Shown: positions 1-53,887 of the stretch, piece by piece
How the letters are laid out: the number at the start of each line of letters is the position of its first letter
Numbering within the stretch: the stretch's first letter is position 1
NCBI GenBank assembly: GCA_964357975.1
Contig: CAYHNG010000005.1
Coordinates: 1,031-65,030, forward strand
DNA: 64,000 nt
Source of the DNA: an uncultured Pseudomonadales bacterium
GTDB lineage: Bacteria; Patescibacteriota; Microgenomatia; UBA1400; MFAQ01
Direction: 5' to 3'
The notes under the pieces: generated by a model
The model's input: only the letters and a program-made list of their open reading frames with translations
The model's database searches: none
Told to the model about the DNA's origin: nothing
Position numbers and translations under genes: made by a program

Positions 1-624
1 TTTGATTTTTTTTAAATCCATTTCGGTGTGGATTGACTCGCCGCCCATTAGTGACTGTGTTTCTTTACCGCCAATAAGACAAGGAGCAAGAACTATAGAA
101 ACCTCATCGATAAAGCCATTTCTGAGTAACTCGGCATTTAGTTGTCCACCGGATTGTATGGTAACTCTTTCGGCAAGATAATTGTGTTTCAGCCGCCGAA
201 ATAGATCGGCAAAATCAATTTTGTTTTCGTAGTCAAGGATTTGGAGGTTTGATAGCGAATCCTTTAATCCGTATGCAGGATGGTTTTTGTTGGTGGTCAC
301 CAGGTAGAGAGTTTTTACCCATTGGGATAGATAATGAACACCGGACTCGGTCAAGTGCGGTCTGTTGTCAATAATGATAAAACTGCACCCCATTTTTATT
401 GGTTGAGTTGTACGTAGATTGACTCCAATCTTCGCCATAACCTTGCCGCTGTTTAAGGAAAAAGGATCAGTGGTTTTCTCGATATCATAATACTGTGACA
501 ATCCTTCTTTGACCCCATGAATTCGCTTGAAATCCAAGTCTACGTCCAGGAAGTCGGTGTCGCCGGTAGAGATTTTGCCGTCAAGTGATTGGATTAGAAA
601 CAAGGTGTTATAAGTTCGATCCAT
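1..624 (-). CDS. RibD C-terminal domain / dihydrofolate reductase-like protein (3' end runs off window start)
   Basis: Minus-strand ORF starting ATG at 624 (MDRTYNTLFLIQSLDGKISTGDTDFLDVD...). Resembles the RibD_C/DHFR-like reductase fold. Absent from the ORF track because it has no stop within the window. Confidence 0.55.
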   Translation of the reverse strand, partial: MDRTYNTLFLIQSLDGKISTGDTDFLDVDLDFKRIHGVKEGLSQYYDIEKTTDPFSLNSGKVMAKIGVNLRTTQPIKMGCSFIIIDNRPHLTESGVHYLSQWVKTLYLVTTNKNHPAYGLKDSLSNLQILDYENKIDFADLFRRLKHNYLAERVTIQSGGQLNAELLRNGFIDEVSIVLAPCLIGGKETQSLMGGESIHTEMDLKKIK

Positions 625-709
625 ATTTTAAGTATAAGGCCTGACCAAGTAGTTATGAGGCGGCTTGTTATTGGTTGAATGCTGTTTCGGTATATGTTAG
701 GGTTATTGT

Positions 710-2937: not shown

Positions 2938-4116
2938 GTGAGGAGAAATATTAGCTTGGCATATTTTCTGTCGTTTGCCTTTCATGGGTGGTTTTGGCTG
3001 GGGAACTGGATATTTTATTATCTAAGCTTTGGCAATTATATGACGGTGGCATTGTTGGATTCGGGAGCCGTGATGACAGAATTAATTTTTGAAATCCCTA
3101 CCGGAGCCTTAACTGATTTGATAGGCAAAAAGAAAACCTTAATGCTCGCCTTTTTATTACAAGGGATTGGGTGTTTATTGATGGGGATCTCGAGTAGTTT
3201 CTGGATGCTGGCTCTTTCTCTCTGGGTTTTTGTTTGTATAGGCGGTGCTTTCTATTCCGGAACAATGGAAGCGTTGGTTTATGACAGTCTAAAAAGTGTC
3301 GGAGAGGAACATTTATACGAGAAAAAGATTGGCGTAGTTGGGGCAACTAGGCTGTGGTCTATGGCAATTTGTGGAATCATTGGCGGTCTTTTGTATTATA
3401 TTTCGCCGGGACTTCCATACATACTGAATGGGGTTTTTTGTCTAATTGGTTTCGCAGTTTGCGCGTGGATAGTTGAGCCGGTAGTAGACACAGAAAAATA
3501 TAAATTGAGTAGTTTTTTTGTACAAAATTCTTTGGGTATTAAAACTTTGTTTAAGAGTAATTATATGAAGAAAATATCATTATATTTGGTGGCAACGGGA
3601 AGTCTTTCCATTGTTGTCTACAACTTGTTGGATGATCTTCTGGCGGTTGAATACGGCTTCTCACCTTTTGGAATTAGCATTCTGTTTTCCGTTGCATGTC
3701 TGGTGGCCGGATTTGCATCGATGTATGTCCCTCGTCTAAAAATAAAATTCGATGAGAGAATGATGCTGATTGTTTCGATGGTGGTAATGGCTTTTGTTTT
3801 GATACTTTCCCCTTTAATTGGCATGGTATTATCAGGAGTTTTACTGATGGTTAGGGTAATACTGGAAGTACTCTATGACAATGCAAGTTCGACGATAATT
3901 AATAGGAATACAGATTCAAGTGTTAGTGCTACCACCCTGTCATCTCTAAGTTTGCTTAGAAGTCTTCCCTATGCTATTGGTGGCTCGTTTATCGGTGGCG
4001 CAGTTCAGTTTGTGGGAGGGGCAAAGAACTTTTCGATGTGGTTTGGGTTGGCGCTGATGATCATTACGGTAGTATTGGGGGCGAGAATAGAAAGAGATAA
4101 GAAAATCCCCTCTTAG
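2938..4116 (+). CDS. MFS transporter
   Basis: 12-TM profile. MFS-like loop motif ...PTGALTDLIGKKK... between TM2 and TM3. Confidence 0.7.
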   Translation: MRRNISLAYFLSFAFHGWFWLGNWIFYYLSFGNYMTVALLDSGAVMTELIFEIPTGALTDLIGKKKTLMLAFLLQGIGCLLMGISSSFWMLALSLWVFVCIGGAFYSGTMEALVYDSLKSVGEEHLYEKKIGVVGATRLWSMAICGIIGGLLYYISPGLPYILNGVFCLIGFAVCAWIVEPVVDTEKYKLSSFFVQNSLGIKTLFKSNYMKKISLYLVATGSLSIVVYNLLDDLLAVEYGFSPFGISILFSVACLVAGFASMYVPRLKIKFDERMMLIVSMVVMAFVLILSPLIGMVLSGVLLMVRVILEVLYDNASSTIINRNTDSSVSATTLSSLSLLRSLPYAIGGSFIGGAVQFVGGAKNFSMWFGLALMIITVVLGARIERDKKIPS

Positions 4117-8527: not shown

Positions 8528-9475
8528 GTGGCTAAAAAGGAAGTAAACGATTTGGGGCTTAGAGTGTTGATAAGAAGATATTTAAGCTTTATTGAAGTAG
8601 AAAAAAATTATTCCAAATTTACGATTCGCAACTACTCTCACTATCTTGGGATGTTTCGCAAATGGTTTGAGAAACATTATGAACAGGAATATATTGAAAA
8701 GCTGACGAGCGAAATGGTCCGGAAGTACCGCTTGTTCTTAGCTAGATATGAGACAAAGGAAGGTAAACGGCTCTCTCCCACTACTCAAAGCTACTATGTG
8801 ATTGCGCTGAGAGCCTTTTTGAAATATTGTGCCAAAAGAGGCGTCAAGACTTTGTCGGCCGAGAAGGTAGATTTACCCAAACCGGGTGAGCATCAAATAA
8901 AGTTTTTGGATAGAGAGCAGGTGGAAAGACTGCTCATGGCTCCAGACACGTCGAACATTAGCGGGCTAAGAGATCGGACCATTTTAGAAGTACTGTTTAG
9001 TACCGGTTTGCGGGTTTCGGAACTAGCTAAATTGGATATCGACAAAATAGATTTAAAGGAAAGAGAGTTTGGGATCTTGGGTAAGGGAAGAAGAATGAGG
9101 TTGGTGTTTTTGTCGGAACGCGCGACGCAGTGGTTGGGTAGATATCTATCTGCCAGGACAGACCCATTCAGAGCTCTGTGGGTGCGCATTCCTAAAGGTG
9201 GTGACTGGGATCCGAGTATGGGTAACGAAAAAGCCAGACTGTCGATTCGAGGAATTCAGAGAATTGTGGAAAAATATCGAAGGTTGGCCGGACTGCCGAT
9301 AAAAGTTAGTCCGCACGTTTTGCGGCATAGTTTTGCTACTACCCTTCTTCAACAAGGCGCAGACCTGCGTAGTGTGCAAGAAATGTTGGGTCACAAAAAC
9401 GTGGCCACGACCCAGATATACACTCACGTCACTAACCCCCAACTCAAACAGATCCACGACAAATTTTTGAAATAA
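8528..9475 (+). CDS. tyrosine recombinase XerC/XerD-like (site-specific integrase)
   Basis: C-terminal catalytic region HVLRHSFATTLLQQGADLRSVQEMLGHKNVATTQIYTHV (R..H..R..Y motifs). N-terminal SAM-like core-binding domain. GTG start. Confidence 0.85.
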   Translation: MAKKEVNDLGLRVLIRRYLSFIEVEKNYSKFTIRNYSHYLGMFRKWFEKHYEQEYIEKLTSEMVRKYRLFLARYETKEGKRLSPTTQSYYVIALRAFLKYCAKRGVKTLSAEKVDLPKPGEHQIKFLDREQVERLLMAPDTSNISGLRDRTILEVLFSTGLRVSELAKLDIDKIDLKEREFGILGKGRRMRLVFLSERATQWLGRYLSARTDPFRALWVRIPKGGDWDPSMGNEKARLSIRGIQRIVEKYRRLAGLPIKVSPHVLRHSFATTLLQQGADLRSVQEMLGHKNVATTQIYTHVTNPQLKQIHDKFLK

Positions 9476-18595: not shown

Positions 18596-18649
18596 CCAAT
18601 CTTGTTAACCTTCAAGGCCTGGCCTTGAAGGCGTGTATAATTGTGACAA

Positions 18650-19345
18650 ATGCCACAGAAAAATAGTCGTAAAGAATACGGAGCTGGTGGCTATTATCAT
18701 ATTTACAATCGTGGTGTTGAGAAACGAGATATTTTTCTAGACGAACAAGACTATAAAGTCTTTCTCGGATATATGAAGTTTTACCTAGAACCTCCCGACC
18801 TTCAAGGCCAGGCCTTGAAGGATCCAGAAGGCAAGGTTATTTCTCCTTCGAGAGAACCAAAGAACTATTCTTCTCAAATCGAGTTACTGTCTTATTGCTT
18901 GATGCCAAATCACTTTCATTTACTAATTAAACAATCTACCAATAGAGGCATAGCGGAATTTATGCAATCTTTGGTGCTTAAATACGTTTTGTACTTCAAC
19001 AAGAAATACAAAAGGGTTGGGGGTTTGTTTCAGGGAAGGTATAAAACTGTTTTGATTGAGACGGAGGAACAATTTGTTTACGTTTCAAAATATATTCATC
19101 GGAACCCGATCGATCTTTTAACTTCACCTTCAAGGCCTGGCCTTGAAGGTGTTGAAGGTATCTGTGAGTATAAATATTCGAGTTGTGGTAATTATGTAGG
19201 CTTGTTCAGTCAGAACTGGGTTAAGCCACAGGAAATAAGCTCTTACTTTAAGAAGATTAAGCGTAATTCTAGCTATAGATCTTTTGTTGAGGAAGCAAGT
19301 GGTTTAACAAAAGTGTACTTTGAGATGATAGATTTAGAACAATAA
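18650..19345 (+). CDS. IS200-like / REP-associated tyrosine (Y1 HUH) transposase
   Basis: Y1_Tnp hallmarks: YHIYNRG...IFLDEQDY, HUH motif MPNHFHLL, catalytic Tyr region RYK...YIHRNP. 231 aa. Confidence 0.8.
   Translation: MPQKNSRKEYGAGGYYHIYNRGVEKRDIFLDEQDYKVFLGYMKFYLEPPDLQGQALKDPEGKVISPSREPKNYSSQIELLSYCLMPNHFHLLIKQSTNRGIAEFMQSLVLKYVLYFNKKYKRVGGLFQGRYKTVLIETEEQFVYVSKYIHRNPIDLLTSPSRPGLEGVEGICEYKYSSCGNYVGLFSQNWVKPQEISSYFKKIKRNSSYRSFVEEASGLTKVYFEMIDLEQ
18799..18821. repeat. 23-bp perfect palindrome inside RAYT-1 CDS (encodes LQGQAL)
   Basis: CCTTCAAGGCCAGGCCTTGAAGG, in frame. Confidence 0.9.
19127..19149. repeat. 23-bp perfect palindrome inside RAYT-1 CDS (second internal copy)
   Basis: CCTTCAAGGCCTGGCCTTGAAGG, in frame (SRPGLEG). 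Confidence 0.9.
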
Positions 19346-19432
19346 TTTCTCTCTGCACGGTTTGCATTTCTTGAGATGGAGCCTGTCCTTCAAGGCCAGG
19401 CCTCGAAGGTGACTATATGAGAAGTGTCACCG

Positions 19433-44593: not shown

Positions 44594-44658
44594 CTATACC
44601 TTGTTCTAGTCTGATATCCTGCAGGGCCTGGCCCTGCAGGTGATTATAATGGTAATAT

Positions 44659-45339
44659 ATGCCACAGAAGAATAGTCGTAAAGAATACGGTGCCGGTGGT
44701 CACTATCACGTTTATAACCGTGGGGTAAACAAGAGTTCGATATTTTTAGACGAACAGGATTTTAAGGTTTTTCTTGGGTACTTAAAACTGTATCTTGAAC
44801 CACCTAACCTGCAGGGCCAGGCCCTGCAGGATGAGAATGGAAGAACAATCCCTCCTTCAAAGGAACCTAAGAACTATATGGGTGAGATTGAGTTATTGGC
44901 ATATTGTCTAATGCCTAACCATTTTCATTTGCTCATTAAACAAAATACCGATAGAGGTATTGCTGAGTTTATGCAGTCTTTAATTCAGAGATATGTGATG
45001 TATTTTAATAAAAAATATATGAGAGTGGGAGGACTTTTCCAAAGTAGGTATAAATCGGTTTTAATTGAGGATGAAAACCAATTTGTGTATATCACTAAAT
45101 ATATCCATCGAAATCCGATCGATATTTTACCTGCAAAACTTGGCACTGCAGGATATGAAGTTTATCGATATTCTTCGTATGGGAATTATCTCGGTTTGTT
45201 TCAACAGCGATGGGTTCGGCCGGAGCAGATTCTTTCATATTTTTCCAATATGAAAGAAGGAAGTACTTATCAAAGCTTTGTAGAGAATACGGTGTCAGAC
45301 GATTTAACTAAAGTATATTACGAGATGATGGATAATTGA
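44659..45339 (+). CDS. IS200-like / REP-associated tyrosine (Y1 HUH) transposase, paralog 2
   Basis: MPQKNSRKEYGAGGHYHVYNRG..., HUH MPNHFHLL, RYK...YIHRNP. 226 aa. Roughly three-quarters identical to the 18650 paralog, by eye. Confidence 0.8.
   Translation: MPQKNSRKEYGAGGHYHVYNRGVNKSSIFLDEQDFKVFLGYLKLYLEPPNLQGQALQDENGRTIPPSKEPKNYMGEIELLAYCLMPNHFHLLIKQNTDRGIAEFMQSLIQRYVMYFNKKYMRVGGLFQSRYKSVLIEDENQFVYITKYIHRNPIDILPAKLGTAGYEVYRYSSYGNYLGLFQQRWVRPEQILSYFSNMKEGSTYQSFVENTVSDDLTKVYYEMMDN
44808..44830. repeat. 23-bp perfect palindrome inside RAYT-2 CDS (encodes LQGQAL)
   Basis: CCTGCAGGGCCAGGCCCTGCAGG, in frame. Confidence 0.9.
45130..45152. repeat. degenerate internal palindrome in RAYT-2 CDS
   Basis: CCTGCAaaacttggcacTGCAGG keeps the 6-bp outer arms at the position homologous to the second internal palindrome of paralog 1. 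Confidence 0.6.
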
Positions 45340-45412
45340 ATGCTTGTTCTAGTTTGATATCCTGCAGGGCCAGGCCCTGCAGGATACTTGATGATGGGAT
45401 ATTAGAACAACT

Positions 45413-50470: not shown

Positions 50471-50499
50471 AGAAAAAAAAGACGCCATGTAATGGCGTC
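50471..50499 (-). terminator. intrinsic terminator of the small Cys-protein gene
   Basis: Minus strand GACGCCAT-tac-ATGGCGTC followed by TTTTTTTT. Confidence 0.6.
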
Positions 50500-50506
50500 T
50501 GCGAGA

Positions 50507-50824
50507 TTAGTCTGTGACAATCAGATCGTCGGGAATTTGAAGTGTTCGATTGCGAAGTTGGCACAGCTCCGAGCCTGTGGCGTGGACGGCGCTATCTTGA
50601 TGTTCATAGAGATAGCCACCATCTAAACCGATCCAACCAACTCCCCGACAGGGATAGCTGTAGCTTGTTGTACCAGCGCGTGAAGCATGGAGTCTTGGGC
50701 ATCCGGTGCAGCCTTGAGTCTTGATTAACTTGGCTAGGGTTATCGATTCTTGATAACCAGAAGGTTTTGCGTTATGCAACCGAATCATACCCTGAACGTA
50801 GCCATAAAATCGTAAAGTAAGCAT
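50507..50824 (-). CDS. small Cys-containing hypothetical protein (105 aa)
   Basis: ATG at 50824 preceded by GGGAGGA SD. Extended -10 promoter upstream and terminator downstream. Product MLTLRFYGYVQGMIRLHNAKPSGY...QGCTGCP...YPCRG. No family recognised. Confidence 0.45.
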   Translation of the reverse strand: MLTLRFYGYVQGMIRLHNAKPSGYQESITLAKLIKTQGCTGCPRLHASRAGTTSYSYPCRGVGWIGLDGGYLYEHQDSAVHATGSELCQLRNRTLQIPDDLIVTD

Positions 50825-50872
50825 GGATCCTCCCGCTGGGAATGAGTTTGAGTGTTTAAAGAAACCTTTTCT

Positions 50873-50908
50873 GAAATATATCACACTAGGCGCGAAAAGT
50901 CAAGTTAT
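50873..50908 (-). promoter_or_regulatory. sigma70-type promoter (TTGACT-17 bp-TGaTATATT) for the small Cys-protein gene
   Basis: Minus strand TTGACTtttcgcgcctagTGTGATATATT. Textbook -35 and extended -10. Confidence 0.5.
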
Positions 50909-50924
50909 GGGATAGTCAGCTATA

Positions 50925-50947
50925 CAAAAAAATCACCCTGATGGTGA
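50925..50947 (-). terminator. intrinsic terminator after the tRNA-Val 3'-fragment
   Basis: Minus strand ATCACC-atcag-GGTGAT followed by TTTTTTT. Confidence 0.5.
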
Positions 50948-50957
50948 TGTTTTCTTG

Positions 50958-51002
50958 TGGGCCCGACTGGACTCCCTCGAGTAGCTTCGCTCTCTCGGAC
51001 CC
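50958..51002 (-). pseudogene. tRNA-like minihelix / tRNA-Val 3'-end remnant
   Basis: Minus strand GGGTCCG-agagagcgaagct-ACTCG-agggagt-CCAGT-CGGGCCC-A forms a 7-bp acceptor plus a T-arm-like stem. Last 20 nt identical to the tRNA-Val 3' end (50955-50974 = 51095-51114). Confidence 0.45.
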
Positions 51003-51068
51003 GTCTCGGCAGGTTCGTTACGAAACTGCCTCCGACATTCGATTCCATTAGCGTAGTAATATAAAAAC

Positions 51069-51093
51069 TCCTCCACAAGGGAGGACCTTTTAT
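51069..51093 (-). terminator. intrinsic terminator immediately after tRNA-Val
   Basis: Minus strand GGTCCTCC-cttgt-GGAGGAG followed by TTTTTAT. Confidence 0.55.
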
Positions 51094-51097
51094 ATTG

Positions 51098-51171
51098 TGG
51101 GCCCGACTGGACTCGAACCAGTGACCTCTGCAATGTCAATGCAGCGCTCTAGCCAGCTGAGCTACGAGCCC
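51098..51171 (-). tRNA. tRNA-Val (anticodon GAC)
   Basis: Hand fold gives acceptor GGGCTCG/CGGGCCC, D arm GCTC/GAGC, anticodon stem CTGCA/TGCAG with loop TTGACAT, T arm ACTGG-TTCGAGT-CCAGT, discriminator A. No CCA encoded. Confidence 0.85.
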
Positions 51172-51180
51172 GAAATTTTA

Positions 51181-51250
51181 TTATTTGATGAGCGCTTCTA
51201 GCCTCAGCCGTAGGCTGATCCGCCTTTGGAGGAAGCTGAGCTACGAGCCC
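51181..51250 (-). pseudogene. tRNA-Val 5'-fragment (acceptor + D arm) with about 28-nt insertion
   Basis: Minus strand GGGCTCGTAGCTCAGCT[tcctccaaaggcggatcagcctac]GGCTGAGGCTAGAAGCGCT. The first 16-17 nt are identical to tRNA-Val positions 1-17. No anticodon or T arm follows. Confidence 0.45.
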
Positions 51251-51306
51251 ATGCGCCTGCGGCGCTATTTTAGGCCTTCGGCATAAAATACATATGTATT
51301 TTATCA

Positions 51307-51858
51307 TCAGCCAACAGATGTGGCTACGGCGCGTTCATTGGCTTGAGTGTAGGAATTGCCTTTGGACTTGGCCATGCTCCAGTAAACACCTTTTTTGGCG
51401 GATCGACCATTGTACATTTCCAGCCAACTATTGGCGTCCTGAACCTTAAGACTAAAAATTTGGATCATTTTCTGGATGTGGGTTAGGAAACTTTCGTGAT
51501 AGACTCCCGCTTCGGAAACCGGAGACTCCACCGCTTTAAGAAGGTTGGCATCGAGGGTTTTTACCTGTTTGGCTAAATTCCTCAGCTGCTCTCTAATCTC
51601 GTCAATTCGCCTTTCAGTTTGTTTTTCTTTTGAAGAGTAGACCTTACTCCATTCTTGCTTTCTGGCTTGGGAAAAGGCTTCGGCACGTCGTTTCTCGCTC
51701 TCTTTCTTTTGCTGGAACTCGGCAAAGGGGTTGGTTTTTGATTCTTGATTACCGTTTTCGAACGTTCTGGCTTGAGAATTACGAAGAGCCTCCAAAAAAC
51801 TCTGAATCTTGGAGTTTCCCTGACTTTGGTTTGATGAGCTGCCCGTATTACTGTTCAT
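51307..51858 (-). CDS. hypothetical protein (low-complexity N-terminus, coiled-coil)
   Basis: 183-aa ORF with S/N/Q-rich N-terminus and a charged helical middle. No family recognised. Confidence 0.45.
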   Translation of the reverse strand: MNSNTGSSSNQSQGNSKIQSFLEALRNSQARTFENGNQESKTNPFAEFQQKKESEKRRAEAFSQARKQEWSKVYSSKEKQTERRIDEIREQLRNLAKQVKTLDANLLKAVESPVSEAGVYHESFLTHIQKMIQIFSLKVQDANSWLEMYNGRSAKKGVYWSMAKSKGNSYTQANERAVATSVG

Positions 51859-53465: not shown

Positions 53466-53486
53466 GTGCACCAAGAGGGAGTCGAA
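53466..53486 (-). repeat. 21-nt duplicate of the tRNA-Arg 3' end
   Basis: GTGCACCAAGAGGGAGTCGAA at 53466-53486 is identical to 53609-53629 (T-loop through discriminator of tRNA-Arg). Confidence 0.8.
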
Positions 53487-53571
53487 GTCTTCGGTAACAT
53501 CTGCTGATGTTCCTCAGACCGCGCCTCAGCGCCGGTCGCGCTTCCGGCAGGTTCTCCTCCCGCGAGTTTAC

Positions 53572-53599
53572 AAACAAAAATCTCCCGACAAGCGAGAGA
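53572..53599 (-). terminator. intrinsic terminator after tRNA-Arg; same hairpin as at 46136
   Basis: Minus strand ATCTCTCGCTTGTCGGGAGA followed by TTTTTG. Confidence 0.5.
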
Positions 53600-53609
53600 T
53601 TTTGGTTTG

Positions 53610-53683
53610 TGCACCAAGAGGGAGTCGAACCCCCAACCGACAGCTTCGAAGGCTGGCGCTCTATCCAGTTGAGCTATTGGTGC
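53610..53683 (-). tRNA. tRNA-Arg (anticodon TCG)
   Basis: Acceptor GCACCAA/TTGGTGC, D arm GCTC/GAGC, anticodon loop CTTCGAA (U33, A37), T arm GGGGG-TTCGACT-CCCTC. Confidence 0.8.
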
Positions 53684-53711
53684 ATGGGTGTATTTTAGAC
53701 TAATTCGGAGC

Positions 53712-53747
53712 GATTGTTATAGATCCCCGCCTACGCGAGGATGACAA
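53712..53747 (-). promoter_or_regulatory. conserved GC-rich promoter-associated motif upstream of tRNA-Arg (copy 2)
   Basis: Minus strand TTGTCATCCTCGCGTAGGCGGGGATCTATAACAATC, about 85% identical to the infC-upstream copy. Confidence 0.4.
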
Positions 53748-53787
53748 TAGAGATAACGCGAGAAAATGGGGTAAAATATGTAGGTTC

Positions 53788-53861
53788 GGGTCAGTAGCTC
53801 AGTTGGTTAGAGCACCTGCCTCTTAAGTAGGGTGTCGCGGGTTCGAGTCCCGCCTGACCCA
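53788..53861 (+). tRNA. tRNA-Lys (anticodon CTT)
   Basis: Acceptor GGGTCAG/CTGACCC, D arm GCTC/GAGC, anticodon loop CTCTTAA, T arm GCGGG-TTCGAGT-CCCGC. CC encoded after the discriminator. Confidence 0.8.
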
Positions 53862-53887
53862 CCCCTTATCGTATATATTAGATAGTA

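Follow-up and report, generated by a model that had tools for sequence, protein, structure and literature searches.

The tRNA-Val locus

The 64,000-nucleotide (nt) stretch of contig CAYHNG010000005.1 analyzed here (the window) carries, on its minus strand, an intact tRNA-Val gene flanked by two partial copies of itself, and the present work mainly concerns the 3' copy, which closes a short element of about 140 bp that recurs behind several tRNA genes of related bacteria. Read along the minus strand, the locus holds the trigger factor gene, a DUF5660 gene (51307-51858), a promoter, the 5' copy, tRNA-Val, a terminator, about 85 nt leading to the 3' copy, a second terminator, a further promoter with a 105-amino-acid (aa) open reading frame (ORF), and infC-rpmI-rplT. 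An earlier note on this DNA had proposed running tRNAscan-SE or Infernal on the region; ARAGORN and Rfam agree on exactly one tRNA-Val(GAC) there and call only this intact gene (from 51097/8 to 51171, 68.9 bits with the Rfam tRNA model; taken here as 51098 to 51171). Its CCA end is not encoded. The extended -10 promoter TGATAAAAT (51298 to 51306, minus strand) overlaps with the stop codon of the DUF5660 gene and represents the ancestral promoter of tRNA-Val; in relatives the motif lies about 10 nt 5' of tRNA-Val and travels with the tRNA on inversion.

The 3' copy (GAGTCCAGTCGGGCCCACAA, 50974-50955) matches positions 51114-51095 of tRNA-Val exactly over 20 nt, from G57 of the T loop to the discriminator plus CAA, as the earlier note had reported, and a repeat search extends the match to 25 nt at 92% identity. 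The two sequences form a pair of direct repeats on the minus strand: the left, attL-like repeat (51095 to 51114) lies within the functional tRNA-Val, and the right, attR-like repeat (50955 to 50974) provides the 3' strand of a helix, P1, followed by the displaced acceptor 3' strand. With an exact 17-nt repeat in the 5' copy and an exact 20-nt repeat in the 3' copy inside 300 nt, a chance origin is impossible.

Terminators had been proposed after tRNA-Val and after the 3' copy, and terminator-like hairpins with T runs are found at both places on the minus strand. Terminator 1 (51058 to 51096, hairpin 51085-51069) is an inverted repeat directly after tRNA-Val, and its type differs from that of the terminator after tRNA-Val in three of the related loci (L005, L009, and L010; related loci are referred to by L numbers). 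Terminator 2 (ATCACC...GGTGA plus a T run, 50925 to 50948, hairpin 50948-50932) is of the same type as the terminator found immediately 3' of tRNA-Val in these three loci and is therefore probably the original tRNA-Val terminator. This order of parts points to the placement, in the window, of a terminator-bearing cassette ahead of the original tRNA-Val 3' end and terminator.

A family of elements behind four tRNA species

We gathered 9 species-representative loci, 44 metagenome loci, and 6 loci from protein look-up, with a DUF5660-based homologue search that reached Collierbacteria-level relatives only. The DUF5660 relatives belong to Candidatus Collierbacteria, a candidate phyla radiation (CPR) lineage in Microgenomates, and the protein is present on a Hainich groundwater contig. 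In the collected loci, the position of tRNA-Val(GAC) between DUF5660 and infC is constant. A covariance model of the element, made from 18 copies and applied at a threshold of E<1e-9, detected 29 distinct full-length copies in Collierbacteria loci, located behind tRNA-Val, tRNA-Arg, tRNA-Leu(TAG), and tRNA-Lys(CTT). Counted by distinct tRNA contexts, 28 of 100 are occupied (Val 10/31, Leu 12/32, Arg 3/19, Lys 3/18), and the remaining model matches are second members of tandem arrays, are found at contig ends or close to them, or, in the case of L082, lie behind a degenerate tRNA-Leu. At this last locus (L082 3290-3355), the tRNA-Leu position holds the degenerate sequence GTCGGAGAGCGGTTCAAAATAAGAATCGTCCTCCGCAC, not called by ARAGORN, and the downstream terminator and element are nearly identical to those of L081 (tRNA-Leu at L081 1688-1769).

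A terminator opens the element and is followed by 12 nt that are antisense to the T loop and 3' T stem of the tRNA. Next comes the conserved core, about 65 nt long and comprising two hairpins, and last a sense copy of the tRNA 3' end, which covers the T loop and 3' T stem and in recent copies runs on through the acceptor 3' strand. Both ends match the local tRNA every time. The antisense ends read ACTGG-ACTCGAA behind tRNA-Val, AGAGG-ACTTGAA behind tRNA-Leu, GAGGG-AGTCGAA or alike behind tRNA-Arg, and GTGGG-ACTCGAA behind tRNA-Lys, and a CCAAT variant in the tRNA-Val T stem of L010 recurs at both ends of its element. Distances from the tRNA end are uniform in all copies, +44 to +51 nt for the antisense and +112 to +132 nt for the sense copy. 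A terminator precedes the element, with no conserved promoter in the 5- to 25-nt spacer. The core is always co-oriented with its tRNA, and an invertible segment was rejected on these grounds. A core derived from a decayed antisense tRNA (AGCTACTCGAG resembles antisense AGCTACGAGCCC) was also rejected, because the Arg, Leu, and Lys copies share the core, which is unlike their own antisense tRNAs.

The window holds two copies, both on the minus strand. Behind tRNA-Val, the segment antisense to the T loop and 3' T stem, AATGGAATCGAA (ideal ACTGGACTCGAA), occupies 51038 to 51049 and forms the 5' strand of P1; it is followed by the conserved core (50975 to 51037), and the covariance model matches 50962-51049 with 45.4 bits (E=2e-12). 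The second copy (53466 to 53599; 68 bits, E=4e-20) lies behind tRNA-Arg(TCG) (53609 to 53683, minus strand), the last 21 nt of which (53609-53629) are its left direct repeat. Its terminator (53599-53575) is followed by the antisense T copy GCGGGAGGAGAA (53563-53552) and the core, and its right direct repeat, TTCGACTCCCTCTTGGTGCAC (53486-53466), abuts the promoter of a 209-aa gene.

A covarying three-way junction

The antisense copy pairs with the displaced sense copy and thereby closes, as helix P1, a three-way junction. In the tRNA-Val copy of the window, the core folds into P2 (GTC/GAC, 51036-51034 with 51005-51003, with a GGA/GA internal loop), hairpin hp1 (51030-51008), and P3 with a shortened hairpin hp2 (51002-50975). 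Across the alignment of the 29 full-length copies, where fitting to the model favors pairing, standard pairs fill 89.7% of cells versus 67% in shuffles, with none of 500 shuffles reaching the observed value, and sliding the partners lowers pairing to 30-48%. Paired cells amount to 100% in P2, 98% in hp1, 98% in hp2, 84% in P3, and 78% in P1, and double-sided changes occur at 22 of 26 pairs. The variety of Watson-Crick pair types per position is not explained by model fitting. When pair types were counted in the three core helices of an earlier, 34-row alignment, we found 357 Watson-Crick, 5 G-T, and 2 A-C pairs; with core helices of such nearly pure Watson-Crick composition, the structure forms equally on both strands, without the wobble pairs usual in RNA. 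Conserved as well are the loops GACCG and CAGCAG and a 3x2 internal loop (GGA, ACA, or GCA opposite GA), and P1 shows recurrent single-T bulges (GGA-T-CTCGAA, GA-T-GTCC) with covariation.

Comparison with known RNA families gave only tRNA: this was the single Rfam 15 family matched at the gathering threshold in the region and in six loci with more than 10 copies, and also at E<=10 in the region only, where neither fragment was matched. A weak match to permuted transfer-messenger RNA (tmRNA) in Rfam was dismissed (12.8 bits versus a threshold of 47). Judged by eye, hammerhead, kink-turn or C/D-box, and T-box readings misfit the conserved nucleotides or the topology, and a bridge-RNA-like guide reading fails as well, as the two "guide" segments, rather than spanning adjacent target halves, form pairs between themselves.

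The earlier note had seen in the 3' fragment a compensated minihelix and, as an alternative reading, a functional tRNA-like minihelix RNA. Such a 45-nt RNA, with an acceptor stem and a T-like hairpin, would be processed or aminoacylated like a tRNA. It was correct that GGGTCCG (51002-50996) can pair with CGGGCCC of the acceptor 3' strand over 7 pairs, one of them U-G, and that a terminator follows. However, the 45-nt fold is no better than that of shuffled sequences (z=-1.84, with 12 of 200 shuffles as good; z=-2.25 for a 48-nt version), and the acceptor pairing is not kept in relatives: the near-identical L005 copy has AGGTCCG and loses the first pair, and the Arg, Leu, and Lys copies lack an acceptor-5'-like strand. 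Moreover, decay in older copies falls on the acceptor 3' strand, GGGTCCG serves as the 5' strand of P3 in the family model, and the Rfam tRNA model matches the intact gene only. We therefore consider a minihelix RNA extremely improbable.

A different RNA explanation is that the three-way junction is a functional RNA, either a read-through 3' trailer or a small RNA, that acts in cis or trans on the cognate tRNA or tRNA gene; the antisense segment might, for example, pair alternately with the T arm of the tRNA and with its own 3' strand, with the repeat reflecting only the origin of the gene. Such a role would agree with the strong compensatory conservation across hosts whose DUF5660 is only about 55-60% identical to that of the window, with the conserved GACCG and CAGCAG loops, with the invariable co-orientation of element and tRNA, and with the right end CGGAAT common to several Val copies, which suggests long vertical retention. 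In addition, a terminator lies 3' of the element in the window, and the distal copy of L081 follows an acceptor segment without a terminator, so that co-transcription is possible there. On the other hand, a conserved promoter is lacking, a terminator stands between tRNA and element in nearly all primary copies, no Rfam family is matched even at E<=10, and G-U makes up only 5 of 364 core-helix pairs, a share that is unusual in RNA and equal on both strands. The distribution of the element, described in the next section, also weighs against an RNA, as about 70% of the orthologous tRNA contexts do without it, indicating that it is dispensable, and its tandem arrays and truncated scars resemble mobile DNA. 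Altogether, a functional RNA appears unlikely to us.

Filled and empty sites, arrays, and decay

For tRNA-Arg, tRNA-Lys, and tRNA-Leu, orthologous sites are available in both a filled and an empty state. What distinguishes them is a precise insertion, about 150 nt in length, between direct repeats of 18-21 nt, the difference being exactly the insert plus one repeat. At the Arg site, the promoter TTTCTTGACATC of the 209-aa gene lies 0-3 nt past tRNA-Arg in the empty loci L003 and L025; in the filled loci (window and L006) it lies behind the second TTCGACTCCCTCTTGGTGCAC, about 150 nt separating the two copies. The Lys site is empty in L002 and filled in L009 and L058, and the Leu site is empty in L003 and filled in L041, L049, and L009. 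The direct repeat runs from the T loop to the discriminator (Val 20 nt, Arg 21, Lys 18-21, Leu 18-19), with a left edge that varies between T-loop positions 54 and 57; it thus matches the tRNA from loop to 3' end, with an intact tRNA on one side, as expected for an attachment-site (att) duplication.

Five loci (L007, L041, L057, L077, and L081) carry tandem arrays, in which the complete copy is proximal to the tRNA and the distal members are truncated copies or scars made of the core end plus a T-loop copy. In older copies, the acceptor 3' strand has decayed (e.g., GTCCAGTCGGAAT) while P1 and the core are retained, and L006 and L008 hold stubs only (TTGGACG and TCGGAAT, respectively).

These comparisons bear out one half of the earlier note's idea that the 20-nt duplication is a scar of integrase-type insertion, since an att-type repeat does bound inserted DNA, but not the other half, that the DNA between the repeats is a remnant. 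If the 120-140 bp were the last remains of a larger island or prophage that had carried an integrase and decayed by deletion, the repeat would have the extent classic for tRNA att sites, as it does, and the variable small cargo genes in the slot distal to the repeat would find an explanation. Yet these genes lie outside the repeats and not between them, and no ORF, integrase fragment, or other integrase relic lies inside. Random deletion would furthermore not yield an insert of the same size with the same covarying architecture at 28 of 100 contexts and four tRNAs. Relatives, which the earlier note had suggested comparing, provided the empty sites at Arg, Lys, and Leu but no integrase-bearing element. 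Viral contigs also lack a related sequence: pattern scans of viral collections with two core motifs, a junction motif, and two tRNA 3' ends returned chance matches only, which fell in phages of high GC content or in tRNA clusters of phages, and the covariance model fit none of them. A decayed island is thus very unlikely.

A proposed gene-less cassette moved in trans

Uniform geometry, covariation, and the filled and empty sites fit an att-type insertion and, as we read them, are incompatible with a random remnant, with debris, and with a minihelix RNA. Our preferred reading, to which we assign a probability of about 0.62, takes the 3' fragment for the outer direct repeat belonging to a gene-less miniature integrative cassette of about 140 bp, inserted in the T-loop-to-3'-end segment of tRNA-Val by a recombinase provided in trans.

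In this scheme, a site-specific recombinase acting in trans would insert the cassette by a crossover in, or just 3' of, the T loop. The insert, as the sequences show, supplies a replacement acceptor 3' strand and an intrinsic terminator along with the antisense copy and the core, and the displaced T-loop-to-3'-end segment follows it. As the enzyme, a Xer-like tyrosine recombinase of the host is the likelier candidate and an HUH/Y1 enzyme the less likely one; it would recognize the folded stem because this imitates the target in duplex form, comparable to integron attC and the CTX phage attP hairpin. Recombination between the direct repeats would afterwards remove or trim cassettes. The interpretation of the fold that we prefer is that P1, on a folded single strand, displays the core of the target in duplex form, which would explain the Watson-Crick strand neutrality, the single-T bulges, the missing promoter, and the location after a terminator.

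Genes of both enzyme classes occur in the window. An Xer-like tyrosine recombinase of 315 aa (8528-9475, plus strand; PF00589, E=2.9e-42) with an N-terminal SAM-like domain is the sole tyrosine recombinase identified there and lies 42 kb from the tRNA-Val element. Two Y1_Tnp (IS200-like HUH) genes (18650-19345 and 44659-45339, both plus strand), 70% identical to each other, each lie between two copies of a near-perfect 23-nt palindrome (CCTTCAAGGCCWGGCCTYGAAGG or CCTGCAGGGCCWGGCCCTGCAGG; 18609-18631, 19387-19409, 44618-44640, and 45361-45383), and these units look like IS200/IS605 units or like units of repetitive extragenic palindromes and their associated tyrosine transposases (REP/RAYT). 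A hairpin element derived from IS200/IS605 or REP-RAYT was rejected as an identity of the cassette, since CCTGCAGGGCCWGGCCCTGCAGG and CCTTCAAGGCCWGGCCTYGAAGG are unlike hp1 and hp2 and the cassette has a direct repeat.

Several points weigh against the proposed cassette. No copy is linked to a recombinase, an autonomous parent element was not found among the examined loci, and about 140 bp makes a very small circle for double-strand recombination. There is no explanation of how one family would acquire a new tRNA 3' end together with the matching antisense copy, and some array members (in L033 and L081) lack the terminator or acceptor segment expected from simple repeated integration. Furthermore, core clustering mostly follows tRNA type, although there are cross-type cases (for instance, the Arg-type core of L048 is 89% identical to the Leu core of L057) and a cross-host case that speaks for the cassette (the cores of L007 and L041 are 91% identical, and their DUF5660 proteins are 77% and 61% identical to that of the window). 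Together with the CGGAAT right end shared by several Val copies, this clustering fits vertical descent under selection and hence a host-level function, be it as RNA or as DNA. Presence and absence could reflect solely the repeat-mediated loss of ancient copies, and gene conversion plus vertical descent with such loss could account for much of the pattern, in a sample that represents one neighborhood of about 3 kb holding four tRNA genes.

More tentatively, and with more doubt than confidence, we consider that Collierbacteria, and perhaps other CPR bacteria, run a gene-less cassette system of modules of about 140 bp, put into tRNA genes by a trans-acting recombinase that recognizes a folded, single-stranded three-way junction with a closing stem mimicking the T arm of the respective target tRNA. 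The only cargo of such modules would be a spare tRNA 3' end and a terminator, and the process would amount to integron- or CTX-like single-strand recombination redirected to tRNA genes. A system of this kind would build arrays and drive local inversions and cargo turnover near tRNAs.

If the cassette reading is true, these elements would make up the smallest class of site-specific integrative DNA known so far and a rare case of a mobile-element recognition stem that is re-tailored for each target; searches of open-access papers yielded no description of such elements. They would also give a handle on how the reduced CPR genomes, with few classical mobile elements, still rearrange. Cassettes insert terminators and displace promoters at tRNA loci, and the pseudo-tRNA fragments that they create can mislead annotation. 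The covariance model of the element is a ready marker for scanning other genomes.

The 5' fragment and rearrangements around the tRNAs

The 5' fragment of tRNA-Val (51172 to 51250, minus strand) begins with an exact 17-nt match to tRNA-Val nt 1-17 (51250-51234), continues with about 30 unrelated nt that form a hairpin (51233-51204), and resumes with GGCTAGAAGCGCT (51203-51191), which equals tRNA-Val nt 18-29 plus one additional A and precedes an A/T-rich spacer; 3' of GGCTAGAAGCGCT, both the anticodon and the T arm are missing. The earlier description of this fragment was accurate except for the insert, which it had put at 28 nt. The fragment begins where the tRNA begins in relatives, about 10 nt past the promoter (L002 versus L006). 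It is restricted to the contig of the window and L002-type loci, between which it is 96% identical, and has no counterpart at the other tRNAs of the compared loci. The possibility that the 30-nt insert is a partial element (AAAGGCGGA plus hairpin) was rejected, an unfiltered run of the element model on the fragment giving noise. The 5' fragment lies outside the 3' element, and we read it as a separate, lineage-specific, and decaying tandem partial duplicate of the 5' part of tRNA-Val. The intact tRNA-Val is probably transcribed through it and freed by RNase P. Between the promoter and the fragment, the window also has a perfect 22-nt A/T palindrome (ATAAAATACAT/ATGTATTTTAT, 51283-51304) and a GC hairpin (GCGCCGCAGGCGC, 51253-51265), both not found in L002.

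The surroundings of the tRNA genes are rearranged in many relatives. In about 40% of the related loci (L003, L004, L007, L009, L034, and others), tRNA-Val and its promoter are inverted relative to the neighboring genes, and the orientation differs even at about 87% DUF5660 identity to the window. The divergent tRNA-Lys/tRNA-Arg pair (53609-53863 in the window) is inverted as one block. A remnant of the antisense T copy (TGGAATTCGAAT) immediately precedes the inversion boundary in L003 and L004. Palindromic repeats of the GTCATTCC...GGAATGAC type, another short repeat family, adjoin tRNA loci in the window (53722-45), L007 (~1370-1530), and L009 (~3860-3930).

The genes next to the tRNAs vary as well. 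In the window, the slot between tRNA-Val and infC contains a unit of about 390 nt (50475-50903, minus strand) with a promoter (50903-50875), a good Shine-Dalgarno sequence, and a terminator (~50500-50475); its 105-aa ORF (50824-50507, minus strand) has no Pfam match. Elsewhere, this slot holds unrelated small membrane ORFs (L002, L005, L010, L026, and L081) or, in L077, a zeta-toxin gene plus small ORFs. Directly behind tRNA-Lys, L045 carries a 171-aa ORF with its own promoter (192-707, plus strand) and HNH-like motifs (CVDCG...CANCHRRRT), a truncated homologue of which lies behind tRNA-Arg in L009 (808-1119, minus strand); it has no Pfam match at 1e-3 and may be a free-standing homing endonuclease targeting tRNA loci. 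In L043, L045, L046, L056, and likewise L053, a promoter (TTGACA-17-TGATAAAAT) about 30-200 nt after tRNA-Val drives a terminator-ended, GC-rich hairpin unit of about 110 nt (GCGGATGAGC...CTCATCCGC), which has no Rfam match at the gathering threshold and may be a small RNA.

Such a labile neighborhood raises the question of whether the tRNA fragments are inert debris of local rearrangement, left by slippage, by inverted duplication plus loss, or by homing-endonuclease breaks. The flips of tRNA-Val orientation between close relatives, the inversion of the Lys/Arg pair as a unit, and the ORF with HNH motifs next to tRNA genes in L045 and L009 are in line with this explanation, and the 5' fragment, found in one lineage only, is itself debris-like. 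Debris cannot, however, account for a conserved core that is unrelated to tRNA, for compensatory changes, or for a constant geometry at four tRNAs. It is the best reading for the 5' fragment only and is contradicted for the 3' element, so that as an explanation of both fragments it is highly improbable.

Comparison with known systems

Phages, integrative and conjugative elements, and genomic islands integrate at att sites in tRNA genes (Reiter et al. 1989; Williams 2002). The proposed cassette shares with them that the insert restores a functional tRNA, that the displaced 3' end lies distal and decays, and that reuse of the site gives tandem arrays. Unlike such islands, it measures only about 140 bp and carries no integrase or other gene, it has a three-way-junction module and an antisense copy of its target, and one family serves at least four tRNA species.

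Short non-autonomous DNA is also known from cis-mobilizable elements (CIMEs), which are kilobase-sized deletion derivatives, and from MITEs (miniature inverted-repeat transposable elements), whose terminal inverted repeats are specific to the element and whose target duplications span 2-10 bp. Like these, the cassette is a repeat-bounded multicopy sequence that is presumably moved by an enzyme in trans. It was not classified as a MITE, because its inverted ends come from the target and differ from one target tRNA to the next, its left (terminator) end is not conserved, and its direct repeat has 18-21 nt.

In the rtT repeats of Escherichia coli, copies of the tRNA-Tyr 3' end occur within repeats downstream of tyrT. 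As in the cassette, the last ~19 nt of the tRNA are repeated downstream inside a longer unit, but tyrT-rtT has no antisense T copy and no conserved junction and is confined to a single tRNA locus; the Rfam rtT family had no match in the region.

Casposon and CRISPR-spacer integration produce long target duplications, and casposons insert at tRNA 3' ends. A casposon-like duplication at the tRNA 3' end would automatically explain why the repeat matches the local tRNA. In contrast to casposons, however, the cassette has no conserved left-end terminal inverted repeats and no Cas1, the antisense copy would be left unexplained, and the left edge of the repeat varies.

Folded single-stranded recombination sites are known from integron attC and from the attP(+) hairpin of CTX phage, used by XerCD, and CTX and other integrative mobile elements exploiting Xer (IMEX) rely on the recombinase of the host. 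The cassette is not an attC site proper: the R''/R' motifs (RYYYAAC ... GTTRRRY) are absent, its stem is tRNA specific (GTTCGAG or GTTCAAG, with C at position 4), and no IntI was identified among the scanned proteins. Its target is the tRNA T arm instead of attI or dif, its center is a conserved two-hairpin junction and not a variable loop, and single-strand recombination is, in its case, only inferred. What it has in common with attC and CTX is that it carries no recombinase and accumulates in arrays at one site, and that imperfect inverted repeats with bulged bases fold into a stem in which the target core is rebuilt in duplex form, with structure conserved rather than sequence (78% of P1 cells paired).

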